The notes below the pieces were generated by a model. It saw only the letters and a program-made list of their open reading frames with translations. It searched no databases and was not told the origin of the DNA. A stretch of 64,000 nucleotides of DNA, taken from positions 1-64,000 of the forward strand of contig JBBRPR010000007.1 in the NCBI GenBank assembly GCA_038227875.1, in the 5' to 3' direction. This stretch comes from Planctomycetota bacterium (GTDB lineage Bacteria > Planctomycetota > SZUA-567 > H5-PLA8). This document shows, one piece after another, positions 1,546 to 30,222 of this stretch. Each line of letters begins with the position of its first letter. Within the stretch, counting starts at the first letter, position 1. Position numbers and translations under genes: made by a program.

Positions 1546-3093
1546 CTATTTCACGGTCGCAATTGCGAATGTAATTTCGCGGGTGTGAGCGGTTCCGAAG
1601 ATCGCGAATTTCTGAGCGATGTTGGGGTGCTTGTTGAGGAAATCCTCGCGGACGATCAAGACGTGGTCGGGCGGGAAAACACTGCTGCTCAGTTGTGCTT
1701 GCGGGCATTCCAGGATTTCTTCGTTGGGTCGATCGAAGTACCAGACAGCTTCGTGGATATCCAGGCCGCAGATCACCACCGGGCGTCCGGCGGAGAGTTC
1801 GTCCATGTGGCGGTAGAATTCGGGGCGGGCATAAAAGCGTTCGCGTGCCGGACGGATGAAAAGTTCCAGGCCAAGGGTCAGTAGCACAGCTCCGGCGAGA
1901 ATCGCGTAGGCCACTCGGTAGCGTTCCGGTTTATGCGTTACAGGTGCCTCGTCTGCCTCGGGGCGGAAGAATGCAGCGTCCAGTGCCCAAACCAGGTACA
2001 GCGACAGATACGGATAGAGCGGGACGAGGTAGACGGAGCGTTTGTTGATCGACAATCCGAACGCGGCGAACGGAAGCAGCAACGCACAGATTACGAAGCG
2101 AGCGTCATTGGTGAGCGCCCCTTTGGGTAGCGCGCGCCAGGCTCGGAAGGAACAGCCCAGCGCCACGGGCAGGAGGATGACCCACGGAAGAAACGCGTCG
2201 CCGAGCGACCAGATGTAGAACAGATACGGCCACGGATGGCCGTCGGCGCCTTCGACTTCAACGAAGCGATCAAAATTCTGGGTGGTGAAGAAGCGGTAGA
2301 CGTCGTCGCTGTAGCCGTGGCGCGCAAGATAGACGAACCACCAGAGCCCGATCGCCAGCGAAAGCGGCACGCCCCACCACACGCCGGCATGTTTCAGGAT
2401 GGCTCCGCGGCGCAACCAGAACAGGTATGCGAGCATCGGGACTACGGCGAAGACTGCGACAAGCACCGGCCCTTTGGTCATGCAGGCGAAACCGAGGCAG
2501 GCGTAAAATCCGAGCAGCGGAAACAAGGCACGGCCTCCCCCGCTCTCCCCGGCCTGCTTGCTTTCCATCCGTGGGATCAGTCGGTCGACGGCGATCAGGA
2601 AGCAGAACCACGCCCAGACAAGAAACGCAGTGAGCGTCATGTCGGTCAGCAGTTCGCGCGCGATTTCATGAAAGCGGTGCGCGGTGACCTGGACAATCGC
2701 AGCCATGAATCCGAAGCGGGCGTCACGGATGCGTCGGCCGATCAGGAATGTTCCAAGCGCGGCGAGCAGGCCCATGAAAATCGGGCCGATGTGAAGCGCG
2801 GTGAGCATCGACATGCCCAGCGCCATGCCGGCGGCAGCACCGGCGACGAGCACCCAGTAGATCATGATGGGTTTAACGAGACGCGGCTGGGTATTGAAGG
2901 TGGGGAGAAGTTTGTCGCCGCCACGGATCATGGCGCGGGCTGAGGCCGCATAAAGTGGTTCGTCGGGATTGGAGACGGATTGGTTCTGGATGCCCCACGG
3001 AGTGATCACGAGATAGATGGTTAGCAGCAGGCCGGAATAGAACCACACGCGATCATTCGGTTGACTCACCGGGCTGTGTTCGTCGGGCATCAA
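1546..3093 (-). CDS. ArnT/PMT-like GT-C membrane glycosyltransferase
   Basis: PDEPLYA...KPIMIYW, DMTLTAF, TKGPV, HPWPYLFY, KRSVYLVPLYP motifs; many TM segments. Confidence 0.85.
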   Translation of the reverse strand: MMPDEHSPVSQPNDRVWFYSGLLLTIYLVITPWGIQNQSVSNPDEPLYAASARAMIRGGDKLLPTFNTQPRLVKPIMIYWVLVAGAAAGMALGMSMLTALHIGPIFMGLLAALGTFLIGRRIRDARFGFMAAIVQVTAHRFHEIARELLTDMTLTAFLVWAWFCFLIAVDRLIPRMESKQAGESGGGRALFPLLGFYACLGFACMTKGPVLVAVFAVVPMLAYLFWLRRGAILKHAGVWWGVPLSLAIGLWWFVYLARHGYSDDVYRFFTTQNFDRFVEVEGADGHPWPYLFYIWSLGDAFLPWVILLPVALGCSFRAWRALPKGALTNDARFVICALLLPFAAFGLSINKRSVYLVPLYPYLSLYLVWALDAAFFRPEADEAPVTHKPERYRVAYAILAGAVLLTLGLELFIRPARERFYARPEFYRHMDELSAGRPVVICGLDIHEAVWYFDRPNEEILECPQAQLSSSVFPPDHVLIVREDFLNKHPNIAQKFAIFGTAHTREITFAIATVK

Positions 3094-6489: not shown

Positions 6490-7407
6490 TTACGCGAGGA
6501 CTTTCGGGATTTTCTGTTTCAAGCTCAACACCGGTTCAAATAGATCGCCGAACTTCTTTACCCGCGCCACGACAGCGGGTGCTTCAAACGAGAGCAGCTC
6601 GGGCTTGTCCGCTTTCAAGGCCGCTTCGACTTCCTTCCACGTGACCGGAGTCGAAACCGTGGGGTGTTCGCGGGCGCGCATTGAATAGACATTTACCGTG
6701 GTTTTGTGCATGTCGTTCTGGCTCCAATCGATAAATACTTTGTTCGTGCGCAGCGCTTTCTTCATGTTGGAGACCACGTCCTCGGGATGTTCGCGCTCCA
6801 ATTCCTGCGCGAGGGCATGCGCGAATTCCTTCGTGCCGTCGTAGGTCGCCGCGGTATTGAGCGGCACGTAAATCTGGAGACCTTTGGACCCTGACGTTTT
6901 GGGAAAGGACTTCAACTTCATCGCCTCGAATTTCTCGCGCAGCCACAGACCGACGCGGGCGCATTTCAGAATTGTGGCTGGCGGGCCTGGATCGAGATCG
7001 AAAGCAATCGCGGTGGGACGTTCATTGCGCGGTGCTTTCGCCAAAGACGTGTGCAGTTCAATCGCGGCGAGGTTGGCGGCCCAAACCAGCGCTGGGAGCG
7101 AATCGATGACGCAGTAGTTCACGTCGCGCTGATTGCCTTCGCTCCACATGGGCGCGGTGCGAATCCAATCCGGCCGATTTGCAGAGCAATTCTTTTCGTA
7201 AAAGAACATGCCCCCCGATCCGTCGGGGTAGCGCTTCAGCGTGACCATCCGGCTCTTCAAGTGAGGCAAGATTGCTGGAGCAATGTCAGTGTAGTACTGG
7301 ATCATCTGTCCCTTGGTAAAACCGGTCTGGGCATAAAATACTTTCTCAAGATTGGTAAGCCGAAGAGACTTGCCGGCGATATCCACTTCGACCGCTGTTT
7401 TCATCAC
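6490..7407 (-). CDS. ligD: NHEJ LigD polymerase (primase-polymerase) domain, stand-alone
   Basis: LTNLEKVFY, RYPDG, FFYEKN, FDLDPGP, KTSGSKGLQIYVP, FIDWSQN, VSTPVTW. Confidence 0.92.
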   Translation of the reverse strand: MMKTAVEVDIAGKSLRLTNLEKVFYAQTGFTKGQMIQYYTDIAPAILPHLKSRMVTLKRYPDGSGGMFFYEKNCSANRPDWIRTAPMWSEGNQRDVNYCVIDSLPALVWAANLAAIELHTSLAKAPRNERPTAIAFDLDPGPPATILKCARVGLWLREKFEAMKLKSFPKTSGSKGLQIYVPLNTAATYDGTKEFAHALAQELEREHPEDVVSNMKKALRTNKVFIDWSQNDMHKTTVNVYSMRAREHPTVSTPVTWKEVEAALKADKPELLSFEAPAVVARVKKFGDLFEPVLSLKQKIPKVLA

Positions 7408-8260: not shown

Positions 8261-9100
8261 ATGAAGATTTTCAAAGTCTTACCCGACCTGAAAAAACGTC
8301 GTCACATGACCTTGTGGCATAAAGCATTGCGCGCGCAATGGTCCGCAGAAGATTTAAACTGGAGCGCGCCACACCGGCTTACTTCGGATACCACAAAAGA
8401 CAGCTTGGCTCGTATTCTTACTCCCATTTTGATGGGCGAGCAGTCAGCGCTCTATTCCGTTTCCGCGTTGATTCCCATTCTTGGCAAGACCTCCGAAGTC
8501 GAAAGCCAGTTTTACCTGACCACCTGGGCGGTGGATGAAGCGCGCCACACGGAATTGTTCGCGCGCTTTTATCAGCGCATCGAACGCGAACCGCTCCCAA
8601 TTCGGCGTTTCCCCAGCGGGTATCTCTTCCAGAGCACGATCGTCTCCAACGAACCGGCGGAGTGGCTGGCGGGCGTGCTGGTCAGCGAATGCATGGCGAA
8701 AATCGCTGTGGAAGAATTCAAGCGTTTGGATATCGATCCGGTGTTGAGCGAAATTTCGCGTGGCATCCTCGAGGACGAAGCGCGGCATCTCGCGTTCAAT
8801 CACATCTACCTGGAAGACCGTTTCAGCGAGCTCTACCAAAAAAGCGCGACGGACGGGAAGACGTTCAGCGAGCATCTCCGTCAGCGCATGGAAAATGTGC
8901 TCGCCACGGTGCCGGCGATTCTGAATGCGCTTGAACCGGATTTGAAGCAGGTTGGCATGTCACGCGAGTCGATGTTCGACCGCCTCAAGACCGACGCGAT
9001 GCAGCGGCTGGACCGCAGCATTACGGCTGGAGCCAACGTAGCTTCCGGCAGCGCGTCCGGAAAATTTGAAGACAAGATCGAGCGCGCGATTACGCCGTGA
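8261..9100 (+). CDS. Ferritin-like diiron-carboxylate enzyme (AurF/desaturase-like superfamily)
   Basis: Two E...DExRH sets: GEQSA...VDEARH and SECMA...EDEARH. Confidence 0.85.
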   Translation: MKIFKVLPDLKKRRHMTLWHKALRAQWSAEDLNWSAPHRLTSDTTKDSLARILTPILMGEQSALYSVSALIPILGKTSEVESQFYLTTWAVDEARHTELFARFYQRIEREPLPIRRFPSGYLFQSTIVSNEPAEWLAGVLVSECMAKIAVEEFKRLDIDPVLSEISRGILEDEARHLAFNHIYLEDRFSELYQKSATDGKTFSEHLRQRMENVLATVPAILNALEPDLKQVGMSRESMFDRLKTDAMQRLDRSITAGANVASGSASGKFEDKIERAITP

Positions 9101-10767
9101 CGCACGACTCGATCAACGCCAGACCAGCGTTAACCCAAATTCTTGAACAGGTGGCCGAAGACGCGCCGCACCGCGGCATTGCCGTCTACGATCGGCGCGG
9201 CCAGAATGCCGAGCGCCGCACGTATCCGGAAATCGTCGAGCTTGCGCGCGGCCGCGCGGCGCGACTGGCTGCTGCGGGTGTGTCGCGCGGCGACCGACTG
9301 CTGCTGGCGCTGCCAACAAGTTGGGAATTGCTGGAGTCGTTTTTCGGCGCGCTGGAACTGGGCGCGTTGCCGGTGATGGTGCCGCCGTCAGGCCCCATGG
9401 GCAGCGCTGACGCGCATTTGGCGAAATTGGAAGCACTGATGCAGGTGCTTACGCCGACGCGGCTGATCTGTGATTCGGCGTTGCGCGATCATTTGCGGGC
9501 TTCCAAAGATTCGCCCATCGCGGGCGCCGCAGCGATGACCCCGACGGAACTCGGTGCGCTGAGCGCTGGGACGTACGCGCGCGGAGAATCTGACGGCAGC
9601 ACGACGGCCTTTCTGCAACTCACCAGCGGATCGACGGGTCGGCAGCGCGCCGTACAGGTCACGCATGCATCCGCGATCCACAATGCGCAGGCCATCGGCG
9701 ATTTCGTGAGCTGCCGCCACGACGATGTGGTCGTTTCCTGGCTGCCGCTCAACCACGACATGGGGCTGGTCGGTTGTCTGCTCTTTTCGATGGTCCACGG
9801 CATCGATTTGTGGATGCTGCGCCCGGAGACGTTCCTCGCGCGGCCGGCACTGTGGCTCAAAGCCATTTCATCGCGGCGCTGCAGCTTCACCCCCGCGCCG
9901 AATTTTGCGTATCAGCTCTGCGTCGAACGAATCGAAGCAGAAGAACTTCGCGGCGTTGACCTCTCCGCGTGGAAAATTGCAATCACCGGCGCTGAGATGA
10001 TCCGGCCGGACACCTGCACGGCATTTGAGCGGAAGTTCGGACCGTTTGGATTCAACGCAAACAAGTGGGTCTCCTGTTACGGCATGGCTGAATGCACGCT
10101 TGCCGCGACTGCGGATCGCCAGCACAAAGGCATCCGCACCGTCAAGCTGAACACCGAGAGTGCCGGGCCGGCTCAGGAAATTGTATGCACGGGCGGGACG
10201 GTCACTGAGACCGAGGTCCGTATTTCGTCCACCGCGACGCCGGGAGAATTTGTACCCGACGAGACGATCGGTGAAATCTGGGTGAAAGGGCCGGGCATCT
10301 TCGCTGGCTACTACAACAATCCCGCCGCCACCGCGGAGACGCTGCACGACGGCTGGCTGCGCACGGGCGATCTGGGCTTCTTAAAAAACAAGGAGCTCTA
10401 TATCACCGGCCGCATCAAGGACCTGCTGATCATCCACGGTCACAACTGGATGCCGCATGAATTGGAATGGGAGGCCGATGCCGCCACTGGCGGCGGCGGC
10501 GCGGAACGTTCTGGCGCGTTCAGCGTCGACGGCGGCCCCGATGGTGAGAAAGCTGTGATCGTGATCGAGTACACACCGATCGAAAATCGCACCCTGGCGG
10601 AGCTCGACCATGATGTGCGCAGTCGTGTGGGCCGGTTGCTCGGCTTGCCGCTGGCCGACGTGGTCTTCGTCAAGCGAGGCCAGATCCCCAAGACCACGAG
10701 CGGGAAAGTGCAGCGCGGGGAATTGCGGCGGCGGTATTTGGATGGGAAGCTCGAACGGTTGGCGTAG
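9097..10767 (+). CDS. Fatty acyl-AMP ligase (FAAL)
   Basis: FLQLTSGSTG, WLPLNHDMGLVG, PNFAY, YGMAE, RTGDLG, IPKTTSGKVQR; GTGA overlap with the upstream gene. Confidence 0.9.
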   Translation: MTHDSINARPALTQILEQVAEDAPHRGIAVYDRRGQNAERRTYPEIVELARGRAARLAAAGVSRGDRLLLALPTSWELLESFFGALELGALPVMVPPSGPMGSADAHLAKLEALMQVLTPTRLICDSALRDHLRASKDSPIAGAAAMTPTELGALSAGTYARGESDGSTTAFLQLTSGSTGRQRAVQVTHASAIHNAQAIGDFVSCRHDDVVVSWLPLNHDMGLVGCLLFSMVHGIDLWMLRPETFLARPALWLKAISSRRCSFTPAPNFAYQLCVERIEAEELRGVDLSAWKIAITGAEMIRPDTCTAFERKFGPFGFNANKWVSCYGMAECTLAATADRQHKGIRTVKLNTESAGPAQEIVCTGGTVTETEVRISSTATPGEFVPDETIGEIWVKGPGIFAGYYNNPAATAETLHDGWLRTGDLGFLKNKELYITGRIKDLLIIHGHNWMPHELEWEADAATGGGGAERSGAFSVDGGPDGEKAVIVIEYTPIENRTLAELDHDVRSRVGRLLGLPLADVVFVKRGQIPKTTSGKVQRGELRRRYLDGKLERLA

Positions 10768-20179: not shown

Positions 20180-20995
20180 ATGAAAGCGATGTCGTGCCTG
20201 AAGGTGGTCGCAGCTCTGGGGCTGCTGTTCGCGGCGGCGAGCATGCGCGCCGAAGATACGTTGGAGAAAGTGAAAAAGGCTGGTGTGCTGAAATGGGGCG
20301 CAGATCCCAGCGGAGGCGCGCCGTACGTGTTCTTCGATCCGAAGGATCCGGACAAGATCATCGGCTTTGAAGTCGACATCATGGACAAGCTCGCCGAGCA
20401 TCTTGGCGTGAAGCACGAGATCGTGAAGAGCGACTGGGCGGCACTGCTCGACAATATGAAGTCCAAGCGCACCGACCTGGTGATGAATGGCGTCGAAATC
20501 AACGAGGACCGCAAGAAGGTCGTCGCGTTCACGGAACCGTACTACGTCTATGAACAGCAGTTGACCGTCCGCGTCGGCGACAAGGATAAGTTTAAGTCGC
20601 TGGAAGATCTGAAGGGGCACAAGATCGGGACGCTCAACGCCGCAGAAGCGAACAACGTGGTCAAGCGCGCAGGTTTCGCCGATGACGATATTCTCCAGCA
20701 CGACGATTCTCTGACACCGTACACGGACCTGGAACTGAAGCGCTGCGATGGCGTGGTTCAGGAGTCGATCATCGCTTCGTTTTACGCGGGCAAGAATGCA
20801 AAGTTGTTTAACGTTGAGAAGACCTTCAGCCCCGGCAAGTACGCCGTCGCTGTGCGCAAAGAGGACGCGACGCTGCTGGCGGAAGTCGACAAGAATCTGA
20901 AGTTGATGAAAGAGAATGGCGAACTGGCTGCGATCTACAAGAAGTGGGCGATCTGGACTGATGCGCAGAAGTCGATTGGCGTCGGCGAAAAGTAA
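20180..20995 (+). CDS. Polar amino-acid ABC transporter substrate-binding protein
   Basis: Signal peptide; IGFEVDI, FTEPYY, ENGELAAIYKKW. Confidence 0.92.
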   Translation: MKAMSCLKVVAALGLLFAAASMRAEDTLEKVKKAGVLKWGADPSGGAPYVFFDPKDPDKIIGFEVDIMDKLAEHLGVKHEIVKSDWAALLDNMKSKRTDLVMNGVEINEDRKKVVAFTEPYYVYEQQLTVRVGDKDKFKSLEDLKGHKIGTLNAAEANNVVKRAGFADDDILQHDDSLTPYTDLELKRCDGVVQESIIASFYAGKNAKLFNVEKTFSPGKYAVAVRKEDATLLAEVDKNLKLMKENGELAAIYKKWAIWTDAQKSIGVGEK

Positions 20996-21100
20996 GGGAG
21001 ACGTACGACGGACGCATCATCCCAGACTCCCGGCATCCCTGCCCCGCCCTCCCCGCAGGCCGGCGAAGCCGTTGCGCCTGTGCCTGGCGCGGGGACGGGC

Positions 21101-21871
21101 ATGACATTTGTCCGGCTGCTGACGCTGATCCTGACGGTGGCGCTTGGACTGGTGCTGTTTTTCTGGCCGAAAGACTGGCTGCCGGAAATGCATATCCCGA
21201 AGCTGCTCTACGCGGCGCGCTACACGCTGTACCTCACGGCGCTGAGCATGCCGCTGGCGGTGATTTTCGGACTGTTCCTGGCGCTGATGCGCTCGTCGCG
21301 GTTTCTGTTTCTTTCGATTCCGGCCTCAATCTATGTCGAAGTCGTACGCGGCACGCCGCTGCTGGTGCAACTGTATCTCGTCTACTATTCGCTGCCGCAG
21401 ATCGGGCAGTATTTCGATACGGACAAACTGACGCTCGATAATTTTTTCGTCGGAGTGATCTGCCTGGCCGGAAATTACGCGGCGTACGAATCGGAAATTC
21501 ACCGCGCCGGATTGCAAGCCATCGACAAGGGCCAGCGCGAAGCCGCACTCTCGATCGGCATGAGCGAACGGCAGTCGTTCTTCCGCGTGGTGCTGCCGCA
21601 GGCATTTCGGATCATCGTGCCGCCGATCATCAACGACCTGATCGCCATGTTGAAGGACACGTGTCTGGTCAGTGTAATCAGTGTGAGTGAACTGCTGAAC
21701 GTGGCGACGGGTATCGGCAAAACCACCGGCACGGTTGCGCAGATGTTGATCGCGGCGGCGATCATTTACCTGATCCTCTCGCTAATCTGCTATGTCTTCG
21801 GCAAATGGGTCGAGAGCAAACTGAAAGTCGCCGGCGCGGCGGAGATTCAGGTCGACCAGGTCCGGCATTAG
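21101..21871 (+). CDS. Polar amino-acid ABC transporter permease (start may be further upstream)
   Basis: YVEVVRGTPLLVQL, AAYESEIHRAG, GQREAA, VVLPQAFR, LKDT. Confidence 0.93.
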   Translation: MTFVRLLTLILTVALGLVLFFWPKDWLPEMHIPKLLYAARYTLYLTALSMPLAVIFGLFLALMRSSRFLFLSIPASIYVEVVRGTPLLVQLYLVYYSLPQIGQYFDTDKLTLDNFFVGVICLAGNYAAYESEIHRAGLQAIDKGQREAALSIGMSERQSFFRVVLPQAFRIIVPPIINDLIAMLKDTCLVSVISVSELLNVATGIGKTTGTVAQMLIAAAIIYLILSLICYVFGKWVESKLKVAGAAEIQVDQVRH

Positions 21872-21885
21872 TATCACAAATCACT

Positions 21886-24800
21886 CTAATTGGATTTAAA
21901 TTCAAGAGCGATCTGATCGCCGTTTGAAGTAATATTTTTTACATTCAAATCCGGAAAGATTTCTTTCAATTTCGTTCCGCACTTTCGATACAATTCGCCG
22001 GACATGAACACCGAGCTGGGACGCGCGAGCGACTTTAACGACTCGGGATTCTCAAGGAATGTCGACGAGGGCAACAGTTCCACCTTCTGACATTTAGGCA
22101 CAAAATATTCAACCCACATTTTCCAACTCTTCTTGCCAAACCAGAAATATGGATACTGCTCGTCCATTACAATATAGAATGAATATTCCGGGGCTGAATG
22201 CTGTGACCGCGCGTAGCGGACCGTCGACCCCACGACGTCTCCCTGCGCCACGCCGCGATGGACATACGAGGCGTAAATAATTCCATTCCAAATGCAAATG
22301 GACGCCACCATCGCAAACAAAAGACCGATACGAATTCGCCGCGTTGGCCGCGCGATCAACAGCGACGTCATTTTCCATATAAAGGCCCGTCCACCGTCCA
22401 GGGCCAGTACAATCGCAATCGGCAGAAGAAACAAGTAGCGTGAATAGCATGGATTTTTCGTGAGCAAGAATGTAAGCGGAATCCAGATCACGCCAAGTGC
22501 GCTCAGGGCGAGGATATCGCGCGCGGTTCTTTTCCGTTTGCACCAGATCTGAACGATGCCAATCCACAACAATATTCCCGTGAGCGGATCGACAAAACCG
22601 TAGCCAATATTGCTATAGATATTTCCGTGGTCGGAAAGATTGTTATTGAACATCGTCAGGCCTTTGCCGGCGTTTCGGGCAAAGGCCAATTTTGTATCCG
22701 TGGTTCCTTCCCATTCACGCAACAATTGTTGGCCTTCAGGAAACACGATGATTTGACTTCGCGGATAGTCCATGATTGCGGGAGGCGCTTTGTACGTGGC
22801 GACCGCCATCGGCGCGGAAGCCACTGCAAATCCAAGCGTCGCAACGGCAGCTGCTTTGAACGCTCGAATAAAGCATTGGGTTGTTCGCTCCATTACAAAC
22901 TGTCCGGCAATAAATCCAAACCAGAGCGCGAGAATGATGCGCGCCGAAAAGTAATTGTAGACGCCCAGCCCCGCCACGATTCCGCCCAGCAGCATGAGCC
23001 CGGAATGCCTCCGCCGCCATGCAGAAATAAACAGCGAAAGTGCAATCAGTTCGAAAAGCAGGGGAAGATTGTCGCGCAAAACCATACGGCTGAGACCCAG
23101 CAGCACGTGGCTTGCACCCAGCATTCCCGCGCCAAGAAATGCAATCTTTCGCTCGAAGAACTGCCGAAAGAAGACGAATCCCGCCACCACTGCACAGACG
23201 CCAAAAAAGGCGCTGACTTGTCGAGCATGCTCCAAGGTAATGCCGCCCAGCGCACGGCTCAGAACGCCGATGAGCATGAAACTGCCATTGGGAAATCCGT
23301 AATATCCAAGATCGACTCCAAACCAGTCTCCACGATCATTGAGGATTCTATTCATCGCGTGGAGAATGTTCATTTCGTCGGTATTGATCTGCACGGGATA
23401 GTCGTAAAGGCGGAACAAATACGGCGGAAAGAAGACGAGTGCGAGCACCAACGCGATCAGGGCGTCTCGACGCGTAAATCGCGAGGTACGTACAATACAA
23501 GGGGACGCATTGAGCGGCCGCAATCCCGCATAAAGAAGGACCATGGTCAGAAGCCACGCGCCAACCATTGTCAGTCCCGGACCAAAATGTGCATAAGTAT
23601 GGAGGAAATACCCTGTCGGAATGAGCGCAAACGCACAGAGCGCGTAGCGTTCAGTAGCGAATGAGGAAAGAATCCGGCCGACTCTCCCACCAGTATTAAC
23701 GCCCGCCACGGATTCTGAAATGGTTTTGGAGTTGAACTTCCAGAGCAAACATCCGATGAGCAGAATTAAAGTTCCCATGCCTGAAGTTGCAAATGGAAGG
23801 AGGGCGCTCTTCGCGGGTTCGAAATCAGCGATGAAAGATTGCGTCAAAACCCAGCCAACTACGGCCAATCCAATACAGGCGCGTTGAACTCGATTGACAC
23901 TTAAATTCCAAAGTGCAACGAATACGGGAATCATCAAAAGTTCGAGAGTTAGTGCATGCGGGCTAACGGTGAGTGGCACTGCCAGCACAAAGGGAACGCA
24001 CGCCGCAAAAGAGAGCACGCTTCCCCTTGGCTGCGCACCGACCTGCGATTTCCGGTCGGCAACAAGCGTGCTCAGAAGCAACACCGCCAACCCGACGATG
24101 GCTTCGCGTCGTGGCAGAGGTGCATATGGAATAATTCCGGGACCCGCGGAATGCCCTAGCAAATGCACGGCGCCGAGCACGCTGGCGTTGTCCGGGCCTG
24201 CAAAGTAAAAATCCGGCGAGTCCAGGTGACTGATTACGAACGCATGCCACAGTGAAGGCGAGAATGCGTAGACCAATCCAAGGCCCGCAATCGCGCCAAT
24301 GGCCACACGAAAGCGAGCCAGGCAGAGCGCGGGAATCAAAAGGATGAGGCAAAACGGATTCAGTCCGGTCGCCAAAGCCAACGCAGCGCCTGCTAGTAGG
24401 TCGAGATTCGCGCGGGCGCGCGGTGAGGTCTCGTCAGCTTCCGGCTTCTGGGAGGCATTCATCAGAAATAGCGCTGCGGCAACCAGCATCAGGACAAAGC
24501 AGTCGATGCTTCCCGCGTAGAAAACGTGAAACAGTGGCGCGCTGAGCGCGGCCATCGCCGCGGCGAGCGCGAAGAGCTTGCGTCGATCATGGAATTCCGG
24601 CAATGACACGCCCAGGGCGGTGAATGACAACCAACCTGCTCCGAGCAATGCGGCGACGCTTAAGGCTTCGAAAATTCCGAGCGCGATCGACTTCGGCAGC
24701 ATGGTTAGCGAAGCGTTGCCGAGAATGGCGACCGGGGTGAAATGGTTGTCCGGGACGTTGTACGCGAATTCTCGGTTGCTTGAGGCTTCGTAGAGCGTCG

Positions 24801-24939
24801 CGTACTCCGTGAATCGGTGCTCGGAATCGGCAATCGACAGTGGACCCTGAACGTGGAACGACGCGACGACGAGCGTCAGCAGCAGGCCCGCCTGCAGCAC
24901 CAGCCCAAGAATGAGCGGCGCTGCGCTCCGGTTCTTCAT
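21886..24939 (-). CDS. Large GT-C membrane protein: GT87-like N-domain fused to an ArnT/PMT-like domain
   Basis: Start MKNRSAAP at ATGA overlap with the upstream stop; very many TM segments; INTDE and YNYFSAR motifs in the second half. Confidence 0.75.
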   Translation of the reverse strand: MKNRSAAPLILGLVLQAGLLLTLVVASFHVQGPLSIADSEHRFTEYATLYEASSNREFAYNVPDNHFTPVAILGNASLTMLPKSIALGIFEALSVAALLGAGWLSFTALGVSLPEFHDRRKLFALAAAMAALSAPLFHVFYAGSIDCFVLMLVAAALFLMNASQKPEADETSPRARANLDLLAGAALALATGLNPFCLILLIPALCLARFRVAIGAIAGLGLVYAFSPSLWHAFVISHLDSPDFYFAGPDNASVLGAVHLLGHSAGPGIIPYAPLPRREAIVGLAVLLLSTLVADRKSQVGAQPRGSVLSFAACVPFVLAVPLTVSPHALTLELLMIPVFVALWNLSVNRVQRACIGLAVVGWVLTQSFIADFEPAKSALLPFATSGMGTLILLIGCLLWKFNSKTISESVAGVNTGGRVGRILSSFATERYALCAFALIPTGYFLHTYAHFGPGLTMVGAWLLTMVLLYAGLRPLNASPCIVRTSRFTRRDALIALVLALVFFPPYLFRLYDYPVQINTDEMNILHAMNRILNDRGDWFGVDLGYYGFPNGSFMLIGVLSRALGGITLEHARQVSAFFGVCAVVAGFVFFRQFFERKIAFLGAGMLGASHVLLGLSRMVLRDNLPLLFELIALSLFISAWRRRHSGLMLLGGIVAGLGVYNYFSARIILALWFGFIAGQFVMERTTQCFIRAFKAAAVATLGFAVASAPMAVATYKAPPAIMDYPRSQIIVFPEGQQLLREWEGTTDTKLAFARNAGKGLTMFNNNLSDHGNIYSNIGYGFVDPLTGILLWIGIVQIWCKRKRTARDILALSALGVIWIPLTFLLTKNPCYSRYLFLLPIAIVLALDGGRAFIWKMTSLLIARPTRRIRIGLLFAMVASICIWNGIIYASYVHRGVAQGDVVGSTVRYARSQHSAPEYSFYIVMDEQYPYFWFGKKSWKMWVEYFVPKCQKVELLPSSTFLENPESLKSLARPSSVFMSGELYRKCGTKLKEIFPDLNVKNITSNGDQIALEFKSN

Positions 24940-26345
24940 TTTTTGCGGCCCGCAAAGGCGTTGGCTTTGCCGGGGTGAAAGTATGTCAGTTCCGGTTCTC
25001 CCGTCAGCGCCCAGTTCACCCACTCCACGCCCTGCATTAATGAATGATCCTGATTGGAAACTTCGTATTTCCACCCGCCGAAGCGCCCGCGGCTGGAGAT
25101 GCCGCGCTTTTCCAGTTCCGCGTGCACCGTCGCGAGGATCGTGTCGCGTTCCAGCGACGGTGTGGGATAGCCGTGGCCGACGCGGATCGTCCATTGGCTG
25201 ATGATTTTGGAGCAATCATCGATCAACCGCGTGCTGCGCAAACCGGCGATCACGTCTTGTTGAAGCGAGGCCTGATCGACAGGCTTGAACGGCGATTCGG
25301 AGACCTCGGCCATCAGCGACCAGTGCTTCTTCGGGTCGGGAACATTGCCGGGCGAGTAATTCGAGAAGACAGTGACGCGGTAGAACGGGCAATCGTTTTC
25401 AGGAAAATACATCCAGCACTTCTTCTGCAGCGCCTCGGGCGGACGGCCTTCCAAGCCGACGCCCATGATGTTTGATGTCGAAAATTTCAGACGGTGCGCC
25501 GCCGCACAGATCTCTGCGGGAAAGCTGTCGATAACGTCGGTCAGCAGGTCCAGCGGCATCGTATTCAGCAATCTCTCGTAGCGGATTTCCGTTCCAGCTT
25601 TGAGCGTCACGCATTTCTGAACGGCATCGATGGACTGCACGGCACTGTTGAGCCGGATGGAGTCGCGTCCGACCAGATCCGCGACGCGTTCCCAGATCGC
25701 TCCGGTGCCTCCATTCTTGGGAAACTGAAACGTATTGTTTGGTCCCCAGGAGACATCGTCGGTTTCGAAGAGAATATTCTTGAGCACGCGCTCGAGATCG
25801 GTCACGGCGACGCGTTCGCCGATCCAGTTGTACGAGAGTTGCTCCAATGGAAAGGCCCAGACTTTGAAGTTATAGGGCTCCATGAAAACGCGCGAGAGCC
25901 CCTCCCCGAACGTGGCGTGAATCCACTCCTTAAAGTTTGCAGGCAGAGTTTTCGTGGGCGATTTGTAGAGCGCGATGAGACCTTGCAGGCATTCCCAAAG
26001 TTCTTCTTTCGGCAAACGACGGATATTGTTCTGAAACGGATACGGGAGGAATCGTTCGCGCATCCATACCCAGGATTCGCGCTCGTGATGAAGCCAGCCA
26101 TCGGCGCCCAGCGCCCGGGTCATCAACTCGTCGAAATATGTGTAGTGCGAGAACTGGACGTGCCCGCCGACGTCCCACAAGAACCCCTGCTCGTCTTGGA
26201 ACGTGGACGCCAACCCACCAACGTGCGGCGAGGCCTCCACGATGAGGACATCGCTGACGCCCAGTTCCTTGAGACGGTAAGCCGCGCCCAATCCAGTGGG
26301 GCCGGCGCCGATGATCAGGAATTTGACGTGATCAGGATACGGCAT
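24936..26345 (-). CDS. FAD-dependent UDP-galactopyranose mutase, eukaryotic type
   Basis: GAGPTGLGAA, DVGGHVQFSHY, YPFQNNI, PYNFKVWA, WIGERVA, WGPNNTFQFP, YFPENDCPFYR, GYPTP, SRGRFGGWKYEVSNQDHS match fungal/trypanosomatid UGM motifs as I recall them. Confidence 0.8.
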   Translation of the reverse strand: MPYPDHVKFLIIGAGPTGLGAAYRLKELGVSDVLIVEASPHVGGLASTFQDEQGFLWDVGGHVQFSHYTYFDELMTRALGADGWLHHERESWVWMRERFLPYPFQNNIRRLPKEELWECLQGLIALYKSPTKTLPANFKEWIHATFGEGLSRVFMEPYNFKVWAFPLEQLSYNWIGERVAVTDLERVLKNILFETDDVSWGPNNTFQFPKNGGTGAIWERVADLVGRDSIRLNSAVQSIDAVQKCVTLKAGTEIRYERLLNTMPLDLLTDVIDSFPAEICAAAHRLKFSTSNIMGVGLEGRPPEALQKKCWMYFPENDCPFYRVTVFSNYSPGNVPDPKKHWSLMAEVSESPFKPVDQASLQQDVIAGLRSTRLIDDCSKIISQWTIRVGHGYPTPSLERDTILATVHAELEKRGISSRGRFGGWKYEVSNQDHSLMQGVEWVNWALTGEPELTYFHPGKANAFAGRKK

Positions 26346-27078
26346 AGCGCGTGCGGAGACCCTTGAGCTGCGTGCCGTGTCCCACCAGCGACAACCGGAA
26401 ACGCAACAGTTCGTAAGCGCTGCGGAAACAGACTTTAATTAATCGCCATTTCACGATGCTAACCGTTCCCGTTTTGCGCTCCACATGTGAAATGGGAATC
26501 TCCTGCAGGTCCGCTCCGGCTTTGGACGCCAGGACGCTAAGCATAATGTTCGGCGTGAAAATTCCCGGTGGAATCAGCGGCAGCAATTCGCGCAGGTAAT
26601 CTGCGCGCATCAGACGAAACGGAATATTCGAATCGCGGAGCCAGCAGAAGAAGAACAGAAAATTCAGGACTCTGACAATACGCGTGATGAGCAGCCGCGC
26701 GAACGCATCGTGACGGACTTTGCGGTAGCCAATGATGAACGGTGAACTGTCGCGGCGCTCCCAAAGTTTCGGAAAGTCGACCGGTAGAAATTGATCATCG
26801 CTGTCGGTTTGAAAAATGTAGGGCTCGCCGGTCTGTAGCGCTTCCTGGTAGCCTCGCATTACCGCCGCGCCGTGGCCGGCATTTTTCTGATGAATCACTT
26901 TTAGCCGCGGTTCACGCAATGCGACAGCGTCGAGAATTTTTCCCGTGTCGTCTTTTGAGCCGTCGTTCACCACAATCAGCACGCCGGGAACTGTATCGAA
27001 GACGGTGAGCCACGATTGGACAACGCTTTCGATGCAGCCGGATTCATTATAAGCCGGCATCACGATCGCTAAGCTCAT
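26332..27078 (-). CDS. GT2 glycosyltransferase (polyprenyl-phosphate sugar synthase/DPM1-like)
   Basis: VMPAYNE, VNDGSKDDT, NAGHGAA, TDSDDQF, DSNIPFRL. Confidence 0.9.
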   Translation of the reverse strand: MSLAIVMPAYNESGCIESVVQSWLTVFDTVPGVLIVVNDGSKDDTGKILDAVALREPRLKVIHQKNAGHGAAVMRGYQEALQTGEPYIFQTDSDDQFLPVDFPKLWERRDSSPFIIGYRKVRHDAFARLLITRIVRVLNFLFFFCWLRDSNIPFRLMRADYLRELLPLIPPGIFTPNIMLSVLASKAGADLQEIPISHVERKTGTVSIVKWRLIKVCFRSAYELLRFRLSLVGHGTQLKGLRTRYAVS

Positions 27079-27495: not shown

Positions 27496-27621
27496 GTCTT
27501 TTCGCAGACGCCGCTCCGCCGGCCAACTCAGCGCACACGTGCTTCATTTCGTTGAGATTTTTTTGCCTAATTGTACCCGCCTCCATCACTAAGTTCAGAA
27601 AACACATGGAGGTCTTTCGTG

Positions 27622-30222
27622 ATGCGGCGAATTGTTCGAGGCATGGTACTGAGCGTCGTGTTGGCGATGAATTATGCGGTGCCTGCGGCGACTACCTATT
27701 TTGTTGACCCGAGCGGTCTCGACACCGGCAACACGGGACTGTCCGGTTCGCCCTTCCGCGAGATTCGAAAAGCACTGACGAAAGTCGTCGCCGGCGACAC
27801 GGTATTAGTGAGCGATGGCCAGTACAAGGGCTTCGACGTCGACAATATTCACGGCACGCCGTCCAATCCAATCACGATTAAAGCGGTAGGAACGGGCGCC
27901 CTCGTCACTATCACCACCGACCGCTCCGACAATCGCGACACGATCTTTGTGACGAACACCTCAACCTATGTCGTGATTGACGGACTTCGTTCTTTCTCCG
28001 CCAATCGATCGGCGGTGCGCATTGACCAATGCGCATTCATCACGATACGCAACGGCGTCTTCGGCAACAATGCGACGTGGGGAATATTTACGGACTTCTC
28101 CGACAATCTTCTGCTGGAAGGCAACGAGTGCTATTCCAGCGGCACGCAGCACGGCATCTATGTCAGCAACACCTGTACTGGTGCGGTCGTGCGCGGAAAT
28201 CTGCTCCATGACAATTTCGCCAATGGTCTCCACATGAACGGAGACGTCAGCCAGGGCGGCGCAGGGATCATCACCAACGCGCTGGTCGAGAATAACATCA
28301 TTTACAGCAATGGAGCCGGCGGTGGCTCTGGAATCAATTGTGACGGCGTGCAGAACAGTGTCATCCGCAACAATCTGATCTACAGCGCGGGAGCCGCGGG
28401 AATTTCGCTGTACCAGACCGACGCTTCCGGTCCTGCGAAGAACAACCTCGTCGTCAACAACACGATTGAAGTTGCGGCCACCGGCAAGTGGTGCATGCAG
28501 ATTCATCGAAGTTTCGATCCGGGCGCGCTACCAAATACGGGAAATGTATTGTTCAACAATGTCTTCCTGACGCTACACGCCACTCGCGGCAGTATTCATA
28601 TCGACGACGCGAGCAATCTCACCGGACTGATCAGCGATTACAACATCCTCACTACTAACGCGCATTGCGTTACGACGGATGACGACACCACTAATCTCAC
28701 CCTCGCGCAGTGGAAGGCACTGAACTTCGATACACATTCGATCTCTTCGACCGAAGCCGCCGTCTTCGTCAATCCCTCTACGCACGACTATCACCTGAAG
28801 ACCGTCAGCACGGCGCTGAACATCGGCATCTCAACGTTAAGCAGCAACAACGCGCCAACGACGGATATCGAAGGCAATCCGCGTCCCTCCGGAGCGGGCT
28901 TCGATATTGGCGCGTACGAATTGCAACCGGTCGTGCTGACGATCAACACCGCCTCGCCGCTGGCCGCAGCGACGAAAGGTTCGCCGTACATCACGACGTT
29001 GAATGCGAGCGGCGGCACAAAACCCTATACGTGGACTGTCACCGGTGGAGCATTGCCCGCGGGATTAACACTGAGCAGCGCCGGAGTGATCAGCGGCACA
29101 CCGACGGGATCGGGCGCTGCAAGCTTCACGGTCACGGTGACCGACAATGTGGCGGCCACGGCGAACAAGACCTACAGTCTGACGGTCAACGTCGTCTCGA
29201 TCACGACGGCCTCTCCCCTCCCCGCCGGCACAGTCGGCACTGCGTACTCGAAAGCACTTATCGCCATCGGAGGAACGCAAACGTTTACATGGTCGGTGAC
29301 GGCGGGAGCACTTCCGGCAGGGTTGACGCTCTCGACGGGCGGCGTGCTTTCGGGAACGCCGACAACCGCGAGCACGGCCAACTTTACACTTCAAGCCAAG
29401 GACGGCGGCGGCGCAACGGCGACAGCGGTATTTGCGCTCACGATCAACGCATCGGGAGGATCCGGCGGAGGCACGCCGACGCCGCCGACCGTCACATCTC
29501 AGCCCAACGCGAGCACCTCGCCAGTAGTGGTCAATGTGCCGGTGACGTTCGGCGCGGGAGCCACTGACGTGGCAGGCGGCACGGTGACCTATGCGTGGGA
29601 TTTCGGCGATGGCACAACCGGATCTGGCGCAACTGTCACGCACATCTACACGACTCCGGGATCGTTCACGGTGACTGTGACAATGACCGGATCGAACGGT
29701 GGAGTTACCACTGCAACGCTACCGATCACTGTGGTTTCTGCCGGAGGAGGCGGCACACCGACCACAATTCCAATGACCATTTCAAAGTTACAAGGCGCGG
29801 CGAATTTCAAGCTCTCCGGCAAGGACAGTTGCTCGTTCAGTGGTGTGCTGCCGAATTTGCCAACGACATTCACATCCACATCAAAAGTTGTAGTGTTGAA
29901 TGTTGACGGTGTGAACGTCTCGTTCACTCTAGACGCCAAGGGCCGCGCCAAGTCGGTTCAAGGTTCGATGATGTTGAAGTTGAAGACCAAGCGCGACAAG
30001 GCGACGAAGAAGGTGAGCTTCATCGGCGGGAATGTTCCGTTCAGCGTGAAACTGACTAAAGGCACGTTCGCCGCGACGTGGAATTTTGATTCCAACACCA
30101 CGATTCTCAAGTCGAGCCTGGTGTTTCCAATCACGCTGCAGCTCGACGGCAACACCTATGCTGCCAGTGTGACGGCAAGTTACTCGTCGAAAGCAAAAAC
30201 GGCGGCAAAGTTCAAGAAGTAG
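27622..30222 (+). CDS. Secreted modular protein: right-handed beta-helix, two Ig-like (He_PIG) domains, PKD domain and basic C-terminal domain
   Basis: Signal peptide; HGIYVSN and NNIIYSNG repeats; DIGAYE; GALPAGLTLS twice; YAWDFGDG. Confidence 0.85.
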   Translation: MRRIVRGMVLSVVLAMNYAVPAATTYFVDPSGLDTGNTGLSGSPFREIRKALTKVVAGDTVLVSDGQYKGFDVDNIHGTPSNPITIKAVGTGALVTITTDRSDNRDTIFVTNTSTYVVIDGLRSFSANRSAVRIDQCAFITIRNGVFGNNATWGIFTDFSDNLLLEGNECYSSGTQHGIYVSNTCTGAVVRGNLLHDNFANGLHMNGDVSQGGAGIITNALVENNIIYSNGAGGGSGINCDGVQNSVIRNNLIYSAGAAGISLYQTDASGPAKNNLVVNNTIEVAATGKWCMQIHRSFDPGALPNTGNVLFNNVFLTLHATRGSIHIDDASNLTGLISDYNILTTNAHCVTTDDDTTNLTLAQWKALNFDTHSISSTEAAVFVNPSTHDYHLKTVSTALNIGISTLSSNNAPTTDIEGNPRPSGAGFDIGAYELQPVVLTINTASPLAAATKGSPYITTLNASGGTKPYTWTVTGGALPAGLTLSSAGVISGTPTGSGAASFTVTVTDNVAATANKTYSLTVNVVSITTASPLPAGTVGTAYSKALIAIGGTQTFTWSVTAGALPAGLTLSTGGVLSGTPTTASTANFTLQAKDGGGATATAVFALTINASGGSGGGTPTPPTVTSQPNASTSPVVVNVPVTFGAGATDVAGGTVTYAWDFGDGTTGSGATVTHIYTTPGSFTVTVTMTGSNGGVTTATLPITVVSAGGGGTPTTIPMTISKLQGAANFKLSGKDSCSFSGVLPNLPTTFTSTSKVVVLNVDGVNVSFTLDAKGRAKSVQGSMMLKLKTKRDKATKKVSFIGGNVPFSVKLTKGTFAATWNFDSNTTILKSSLVFPITLQLDGNTYAASVTASYSSKAKTAAKFKK

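Follow-up and report, generated by a model that had tools for sequence, protein, structure and literature searches.

A planctomycetal operon with a long-form UDP-galactopyranose mutase, a candidate polyprenyl-phosphate-galactofuranose synthase and a GT-C fusion protein

The operon and its first two proteins

In a 64,000-nucleotide stretch of DNA from a member of the Planctomycetota (assembly GCA_038227875.1, contig JBBRPR010000007.1, positions 1 to 64,000; hereafter the window), three genes in a row encode a family 2 glycosyltransferase (GT2; P0002), a flavoprotein that we assign to the long, eukaryotic-type form of UDP-galactopyranose mutase (UGM; P0001) and a membrane protein with two glycosyltransferase halves of the GT-C fold (P0003; Table 1). 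An earlier note on this DNA, made from the sequence alone, had described three overlapping, coupled genes, and so they are: all lie on the minus strand, the GT2 and mutase genes overlap by 14 nt, and the ATG of P0003 overlaps the mutase stop codon as ATGA. The open frame of P0003 extends upstream to a TTG at 25215, within the mutase gene, and a GGAG sits 7 nt 5' of the GT2 ATG. All parts of the operon belong to known folds and each gene is single-copy in the source genome; we propose that together they would make galactofuranose (Galf), load it onto polyprenyl phosphate and transfer it to an acceptor in the cell envelope.

Table 1. The operon, the halves of its third product and the flanking genes
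Feature	Position	Strand	Description
P0002, GT2	27078-26332	minus	248 aa; first transcribed of three
P0001, flavoprotein	26345-24936	minus	469 aa; second transcribed
P0003, membrane protein	24939-21886	minus	1017 aa from ATG; third transcribed
P0003 N-terminal half, GT87-like GT-C	23680-24939	minus	PF09594 match; boundary between halves approximate
P0003 C-terminal half, ArnT/PMT-like GT-C	21886-23652	minus	PMT_2 match; DE pair
Amino-acid ABC transporter pair, convergent flank	20180-21871	plus
Beta-helix/Ig/PKD surface protein, divergent flank	27571-30222	plus	883 aa, secreted-type; right-handed beta-helix, Ig (He_PIG) and PKD domains

Searched against all PDB sequences, the flavoprotein matches Trypanosoma cruzi UGM (4dsg) across residues 8-463 with E 2.4e-137 and Aspergillus fumigatus UGM with E 3e-131. 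These two enzymes make up the top 14 of the 27 matches (E 2e-137 to 2e-129), the next family, the amine oxidases, follows at E 6e-7, and no chain of Glf, the bacterial mutase, appears at E <= 0.001. Against TIGR00031, the Glf model with a cut-off of 303.75 bits, the flavoprotein reaches 27.2 bits, and it stays below all cut-offs on the PRK07208 models of NCBIfam (best 183 bits versus 389); its Pfam Amino_oxidase match has E 1.8e-20. No PF03275 match and no Glf was found in the source genome, where P0001 is the sole mutase found. All seven motifs on which the earlier note had relied are present, namely GGH..FSHY (residues 60-68), YPFQNN (102-107), YNFKVW (158-163), W.GERVA (174-180), WGPN.TF.FP (200-209), YFPE..CPFYR (313-323) and RGRFG.W.YEV.NQDHS (419-435), and the match to UGM lies far past chance.

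For a comparison of active sites, contact residues listed in PMC3624792 (Table 3) and PMC3322874 were mapped via A. felis UGM, with the mapping calibrated on the GGH loop; R91 is from PMC3322874, and S93 was added to the set. Thirty of the 32 A. fumigatus positions checked are identical in P0001, the exceptions being D38 (E in P0001) and G456 (S). The histidine loop is kept (G61-G62-H63, V64, F66 and H68 correspond to G60, G61, H62, V63, F65 and H67 of P0001), as are all 14 UDP-galactopyranose (UDP-Galp) contacts: Y104, F106, Q107, F158, N163, W167, R182, N207, W315, Y317, R327, Y419, Y453 and N457. Across 203 homologues, H63, Q107, R327, Y419, Y453 and N457 are present in every sequence, R182 in 202 and N207 in 197. 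Equivalents of R91, S93, Y104 and R447, which we take to bind NADPH in UGM, are likewise kept in P0001. Six distant PRK07208-like proteins retain H63, W167, R182, Y317, R327, Y419 and R447, but differ from UGM at V64, Q107, N163 and N207.

P0001 also shares with the T. cruzi (PDB 4DSG/4DSH) and A. fumigatus (3UKA, 3UTE and others) enzymes its length class and the flap in the 200s with WGPN, in addition to the G-G-H loop, W315, Q107 and the catalytic arginines. It differs from them in being encoded by a bacterial gene coupled to a lipid-carrier GT2, and it lacks an insertion of about 22 residues near residue 345 of Aspergillus UGM. Glf, for which the same reaction is predicted, is about 100 residues shorter than P0001 and aligns with it only over the FAD-binding start. 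Matches to P0001 were obtained for 7987 of 8000 scored candidates, the best 120 of which are 59-89% identical and carry oxidase labels where named; close homologues are called protoporphyrinogen oxidase, amine oxidase or FAD-dependent oxidoreductase, just as the earlier note had forecast, and thousands of such database entries would need correction. The UGM assignment passed the tests of structure-database match, active-site residues and tree position (see below), and with reduced FAD P0001 very probably interconverts UDP-Galp and UDP-Galf, as judged by its sequence.

The GT2 has a Pfam PF00535 match (E 3.6e-18). With a profile of its subfamily, the best solved relatives are ArnC and then GtrB, with DPMS also aligning over nearly the full length; as a single sequence it matches ArnC with E 1.9e-10. 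Full-length matches to the profile are polyprenyl-phosphate transferases plus one marginal glucosyl-phosphoglycerate synthase entry, the other GT2s aligning at the N-terminal 110-120 positions only. Residues D92, D94, Q96, R119, R128 and R201 correspond to D100, D102, Q104, R128, R137 and R205 of ArnC, and the DxDxQ motif reads D92-S-D94-D-Q96 versus DADLQ. According to a preprint on ArnC (bioRxiv 10.1101/2025.01.29.634835), D100 is the base and R128 and R137 hold the lipid phosphate. The equivalents of D92, R119, R128 and R201 are invariant in all 95 subfamily sequences; W23, D149, N151 and P153 are found in 94-95 of these sequences and are absent from all ten outgroup GT2s, of which one has H69. 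This coherence is partly by construction, since the set was picked by similarity to the query; the alignment and tree leave out 25 listed loci and open reading frames under 200 aa. About 926 database proteins match P0002 at E <= 1e-30.

Compared with GtrB and ArnC, the planctomycetal GT2 is a short form that has no C-terminal membrane helices and carries the subfamily residues W23, H69, D-S-D and D149-x-N151-x-P153. Where ArnC and GtrB have juxtamembrane amphipathic helices, P0002 shows stretches rich in hydrophobic and basic residues (about 125-148 and 208-235) that may be counterparts. The match to ArnC, GtrB and DPMS, together with the retained lipid-phosphate arginines, bears out the earlier suggestion of a polyprenyl-phosphate type GT2 and makes P0002 a candidate polyprenyl-phosphate-Galf (polyprenyl-P-Galf) synthase.

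Spread of the long-form mutase and its linkage to the GT2

While the class assigned by the earlier note, eukaryotic-type UGM, stands, a restriction to eukaryotes does not, since the long form is a broad prokaryotic family. At E <= 1e-30, 1106 clusters (50% clustering) match P0001, PRK07208-like proteins being counted in. The best 80 genome loci belong to Bacteroidota, Planctomycetota, Verrucomicrobiota, Myxococcota, Armatimonadota, Desulfovibrionaceae, Actinobacteria, Leptospiraceae, a cyanobacterium, Chromatiaceae, Bdellovibrionales and an archaeal metagenome-assembled genome (MAG), and include the cultured environmental carriers Flectobacillus, Spirosoma, Pseudarcicella and Flavipsychrobacter, which make the pathway directly testable. 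P0001 is 43-46% identical to proteins of Aspergillus, Leptomonas, Carpediemonas, Euglena and Mataza. Strong matches occur in two of 16 genomes of its own family (51-52% identity), and a protein of a Cytophagia MAG is closer, at 67%; this patchiness and the higher identity to the Cytophagia MAG fit lateral movement of the GT2-mutase pair.

In a 35-sequence IQ-TREE phylogeny, the query and all six eukaryotic rows form one clade (ultrafast bootstrap 84, or 68 with the deepest member, L085), and Glf and two PRK07208-like groups are each supported at 100. The query thus groups with eukaryotic UGMs, apart from the Glf and PRK07208-like groups, with moderate support. Within the clade, the eukaryotes come together with low support (32) in a group that includes one actinobacterial row and is sister to most bacterial rows. 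A 215-sequence FastTree phylogeny, which leaves out 20 near-redundant or short loci and all fragments, scatters the named eukaryotes among prokaryotic and unnamed rows and places bacterial proteins nearest to the query. With bacterial proteins as the nearest relatives, we reject a recent eukaryote-to-bacterium transfer at this locus. A review of the field (PMC3624792) describes the long UGMs as eukaryotic enzymes that share 14-18% identity with the prokaryotic ones; the spread reported here undermines the prokaryotic-versus-eukaryotic split as drawn there.

Several members of the long-form family have unusual architectures. Some are fused to NDP-sugar epimerase domains (P0161, P0171, P0194, P0199), one of them in Euglena longa, and fusions to DUF3431 recur (P0162, P0167, P0168, P0180, P0196, P0198 and others), in one case with GT90 as well. 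At L066:8523-9158 the mutase is followed by a separate DUF3431 gene; DUF3431 is a candidate Galf transferase. The Carpediemonas membranifera protein P0124 has two near-identical UGM domains flanking a DUF707 domain. A long-form UGM with 44% identity to P0001 is encoded on a 20 Mb scaffold of the sea cucumber Apostichopus japonicus (P0160 cluster: P0288, P0289), a deuterostome with a possible Galf pathway.

The link between GT2 and mutase was surveyed in both directions. Starting from the mutase, 39 of the 80 loci have a P0002-like gene immediately upstream and 40 have one at some position; about 16 of these GT2-bearing loci are from related Cytophagales. Where the GT2 is lacking, the mutase sits mostly among GT2/GT4, ABC-export, Wzx-like or methyltransferase genes, as judged by a scan of 119 selected neighbours. 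Starting from the GT2 alone, we retrieved 80 metagenome loci (17 of them under 3 kb): 14 carry a long-form mutase (about 12 distinct, L101 being the same as L080), 15 a canonical Glf above cut-off (22 candidates scanned) and 22 the flippase GtrA (25 small candidates scanned), with nine carrying both Glf and GtrA. PMT/PMT_2 matches (E <= 0.001), most of them below cut-off, were found in 13 of 52 larger membrane neighbours, at 12 loci, and DUF2298 proteins, presumably kin of GT-C enzymes, in four of the reverse loci. More generally, DUF2298 membrane proteins recur by the GT2 (L080/L101, L105, L113, L145, L165) and are candidate GT-C users of its donor.

Glf is an exchangeable partner of the same GT2 subfamily. 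At L103, a Glf (441 bits) occupies the slot held by the long form in L002, L008, L104 and L111; the genes to either side are orthologous and the GT2s 73-90% identical. In the GT2 tree, L103 nests in the long-form clade (support 0.995) and L169 is a second switch, giving at least two changes of partner.

The same association is seen across genomes. Among 201 Cytophagales, the order of Flectobacillus, whose centre genome was picked for having the mutase, 15 carry the GT2, and all 15 have exactly one type of mutase. In seven it is the long form, always adjacent and never together with Glf; in eight it is Glf, adjacent in one and elsewhere in seven. The long form occurs in no non-carrier and Glf in 40 of 186 non-carriers. 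Fisher's test gives p 8e-10 for GT2-mutase co-occurrence and 9e-6 for the eight Glf carriers alone, both values being inflated by kinship. Carriers outside Cytophagales are few and thus add little replication power: three others among 350 genomes of the query's own phylum (two with the long form, one, G443, with an adjacent PRK07208-like gene of 24% identity) and three among 191 Chitinophagales (two with an adjacent long form, one of these being the centre genome, and one, G714, with neither mutase). In sum, 19 of the 21 GT2 carriers other than the source genome have a recognised mutase. Dependence is one-way, as the same-family genome G001 has a long mutase without this GT2. The GT2 subfamily co-occurs with UDP-galactose mutase of either class, and of the neighbourhood whose conservation the earlier note had proposed to check, the GT2-mutase pair recurs, but the third gene is not kept with it.

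Two observations from these surveys stand apart. A PRK07208-like flavoprotein gene is adjacent to the GT2 in G443 (L183:7355-9280) and lies on another contig in G714 (G714:C197); because other such proteins keep the UGM catalytic arginines and tyrosines, NDP-sugar mutases may include PRK07208 as a third class. In Cytophagales, a conserved locus (L002, L008, L016-L028, L035, L102-L112) comprises orphan membrane proteins of 550-620 aa (one with PMT_2), an acyltransferase-3, the GT2, a mutase slot that is empty or holds the long form or Glf, an orphan protein of 900 aa and often an MBOAT protein; this is the best cultured model.

The proposed pathway, its GT-C user and rival explanations

In the pathway that we propose, the product of galE, a gene present elsewhere in the source genome, would supply UDP-Galp, and P0001 with reduced FAD would convert it reversibly to UDP-Galf. 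At the inner membrane face, P0002 would move Galf from UDP-Galf to polyprenyl phosphate with inversion, yielding polyprenyl-P-beta-Galf; since the equilibrium UDP-Galp:UDP-Galf is 93:7 (PMC3308961), such trapping would pull the unfavourable mutase reaction. The lipid donor would then be flipped across the membrane, a step for which relatives use GtrA, and the C-terminal GT-C of P0003, possibly along with other GT-C proteins, would transfer Galf to an envelope acceptor. Were this GT-C inverting, like most, the product would be alpha-linked Galf. We consider the donor step, synthesis of polyprenyl-P-Galf by the GT2, likely on the sequence evidence. The pathway as a whole, from UDP-Galp via UDP-Galf and polyprenyl-P-Galf to GT-C transfer, is reasonably probable at this locus, and transfer by the C-terminal GT-C of P0003, possibly with other GT-Cs of the genome, has somewhat better than even chances.

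The overall logic resembles that of GtrB/GtrA/Gtr* of Shigella and Salmonella and of ArnC/ArnT, in which a GtrB/ArnC-like GT2 likewise acts on a UDP-sugar and a GT-C follows, with GtrA in many related loci; unlike in those systems, the donor predicted here is a hexofuranose made via a mutase and the operon holds no flippase gene. Lipid-linked furanoses used by GT-Cs outside the cytoplasm are also found in Citrobacter youngae O1/O2 (PMC11127046) and in the mycobacterial DPA/Emb/Aft system, but these donors are pentoses derived from phosphoribosyl pyrophosphate (PRPP) by epimerases and a polyprenyl phosphoribose synthase that, by the same text, is unrelated to the GtrB type. The main text of PMC11127046 gives Glc or Gal as the GtrB-type hexose donors and makes no mention of galactofuranose, Galf or mutase. 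Among the paper listings searched, from which most subscription papers are missing, none describes a long-form UGM in bacteria or polyprenyl-P-Galf as a donor.

P0003 is the putative user of the donor. The earlier note had called it a double GT-C protein: the architecture, a GT87 half followed by a PMT_2 half, is confirmed, but of the two active sites only that of the C-terminal half is clearly intact. The GT87 match spans residues 67-321 (PF09594, E 1.1e-12, 48.6 bits versus a cut-off of 25), and the nearest Atlas clusters of the N-terminal half are GT87 (score 0.98). The PMT_2 match spans residues 561-708 (E 5e-5), falling below the Pfam cut-off in one search and above it in another. D521-E522 follows a membrane helix in the C-terminal half, and D521 is invariant in a 15-sequence alignment. 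A model of this half built on that alignment has a predicted local distance difference test score (pLDDT) of 70.7 and a predicted template-modelling score (pTM) of 0.75, and all 23 of its Foldseek matches at E <= 0.001 are GT-C proteins (AglB, ArnT, PglB, STT3, ALG12, Pmt4; TM-score of the top matches about 0.5). A single-sequence fold of the whole protein reached pLDDT 41.6 and was not used, and at E <= 1 none of the solved structures matches P0003 in sequence. Neither half is a duplicate of the other. Shorter homologues of the C-terminal half number two among 8000 candidates (546 aa, 39% identity; 427 aa, 36%), a search that left out near-length or longer fused ones. The junction of the halves is spanned, among the pieces listed, only by the possible source run, and the fusion is therefore without independent confirmation. 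Further double GT-C fusions may be represented by a 945-aa protein that has GT87 at its C-terminal end and is encoded close to a long-form UGM (L041:11289-14123, minus strand) and by an 1184-aa frame with PMT_2 in the source genome itself (G000:C19:85258-85740).

Several observations weigh against the proposed pathway. No GtrA (PF04138) was found in the operon or in the 88% complete genome, in a search that did not extend to MATE and other flippases; as judged by sequence and fold, both the donor synthase and the GT-C of a three-component system are in the operon, but with no flippase found we do not file the locus as a complete system, even though it would work like one. The N-terminal half as the missing flippase was given low odds, and an Agl23 hit of the other half, at 20 bits versus 126, lends no support. 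That N-terminal half has Arg42 where Asp stands in all five GT87 proteins aligned with it (three of them encoded by the source genome; a small and rough alignment, with D38, E40 and E45 nearby), and the Arg42 codon is more than one base away from any Asp codon. The conserved Asp would be catalytic by a general statement on GT-Cs in PMC11127046, and the GT87 half is probably degenerate by sequence, being either non-catalytic or an altered module. Forty of the 80 long-form loci are without the GT2, from which it follows that the mutase also serves ordinary cytoplasmic pathways; 51 of the 80 reverse loci show no recognised mutase in the available DNA, and the survey has no matched adjacency control of other DPM-like GT2s; and the carriers G443 and G714 are without either recognised mutase. 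No homologue of P0003 was found in the 80 mutase loci, and none of its C-terminal half in 200 genomes of the phylum; the fusion was not found by other GT2-mutase pairs at the mutase or reverse loci and appears local. Finally, with nine further GT2-profile matches and 19 PMT_2 matches in the source genome, P0003 could use another donor.

What ties P0003 to the donor is translational coupling and the recurrence of GT-C-type neighbours by the pair at other loci (L037, L051, L071, L105). The same two points argue against the idea that the pair makes polyprenyl-P-Galf mainly for other GT-Cs of the genome, which we regard as unlikely. That idea gains from the many pairs without an adjoining membrane protein (e.g. 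L001, L013, L061, L069), from the alternative users that the 19 PMT_2 and four GT87 matches represent, and from the few relatives of P0003 and the G+C content of 0.52 in 22001-24000, below that of the flanks of P0003. The GT-C user is the weakest link, as the third gene is not conserved, no GtrA was found and other lipid-donor synthases are present. As for the sugar, flavin mutases can accept or specialise on other furanoses, and the same pathway could carry L-arabinofuranose, D-fucofuranose or GalfNAc; the PRK07208-like partners of two GT2 carriers do differ in their sugar-contact residues. However, all galactose and uracil contacts of A. fumigatus UGM are kept (equivalents of R182, N207, W315, R327, N457, Y104 and Q107), and the Glf proteins with which the partner is interchangeable score above the curated cut-off for UDP-galactopyranose mutase, leaving another sugar a little less probable still. 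The lipid-linked furanose pathway anticipated in the earlier note is thus supported, with Galf favoured over arabinofuranose, while P0003 as user is where it is least secure.

Known Galf transferases take UDP-Galf directly, several of them being GT2s, and the cytoplasm is where UDP-Galf normally gives up its Galf. The GT2 might accordingly be a cytoplasmic galactofuranosyltransferase acting on a glycolipid, phospholipid or lipid-pyrophosphate-linked glycan, with no monophosphate carrier and with the GT-C independent of it, a reading in keeping with the missing GtrA and with the distant similarity of P0002 to ArnC. Against it stand the full-length profile matches, almost all to polyprenyl-phosphate transferases, the invariant phosphate-binding arginines and the presence of GtrA in 22 of the 80 GT2-subfamily loci, and we consider it improbable. 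That the flavoprotein is instead a protoporphyrinogen or amine oxidase and the gene order incidental is most improbable: the database names and the Amino_oxidase match point that way, but UGM structures match P0001 more than 120 orders of magnitude better than oxidases do, its UGM active site is conserved and Glf replaces the long form in place at L103.

Beyond the locus, our broader proposal is that P0002 founds a widespread subfamily of polyprenyl-P-Galf synthases, fed interchangeably by Glf, the long UGM and perhaps PRK07208, whose product, a new lipid-linked hexofuranose donor, is used by GT-Cs to attach alpha-Galf to glycans or proteins of the envelope. The long UGM family would then be ancient in prokaryotes, and the drug target of fungi and trypanosomatids would probably derive from it. 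We hold this to be slightly favoured by the evidence as it stands. If true, it would give bacterial glycobiology a new sugar donor, predict alpha-linked Galf added outside the membrane, assign a testable function to orphan GT-C proteins as well as to the subfamily of P0002, and provide a new glycoengineering tool.

Genome context and neighbouring genes

The source genome comprises 9.3 Mb in 176 contigs. Near-identical pieces of the locus occur in three other sequencing runs, and among the runs listed for the locus there is no RNA run. No plasmid match for the GT2 was found at E 1e-30. A promoter scan gave two sites versus 2.9 expected, none of them 5' of the GT2, and is uninformative; terminator-like sites number 13 versus 7.1 +/- 2.6. 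Cumulative GC skew climbs to about 22-26 kb and then falls steadily, the operon sitting at the turning point, which may come from gene orientation or a replication terminus.

The divergently transcribed surface protein could be polysaccharide lyase-like or a glycosylation target, with evidence for neither. Elsewhere in the window, a lone second ArnT-like GT-C gene (1546-3093, minus strand; 515 aa, PMT E 3.6e-7, DE motif) encodes another possible user of a lipid-linked donor. A stand-alone LigD primase-polymerase domain protein is encoded at 6490-7407 (minus strand), and at 8261-10767 (plus strand) a gene for an AurF/ferritin-like di-iron protein (279 aa) is coupled to that for a fatty-acyl-AMP-ligase-like enzyme (556 aa), possibly forming a small lipid-tailoring unit.

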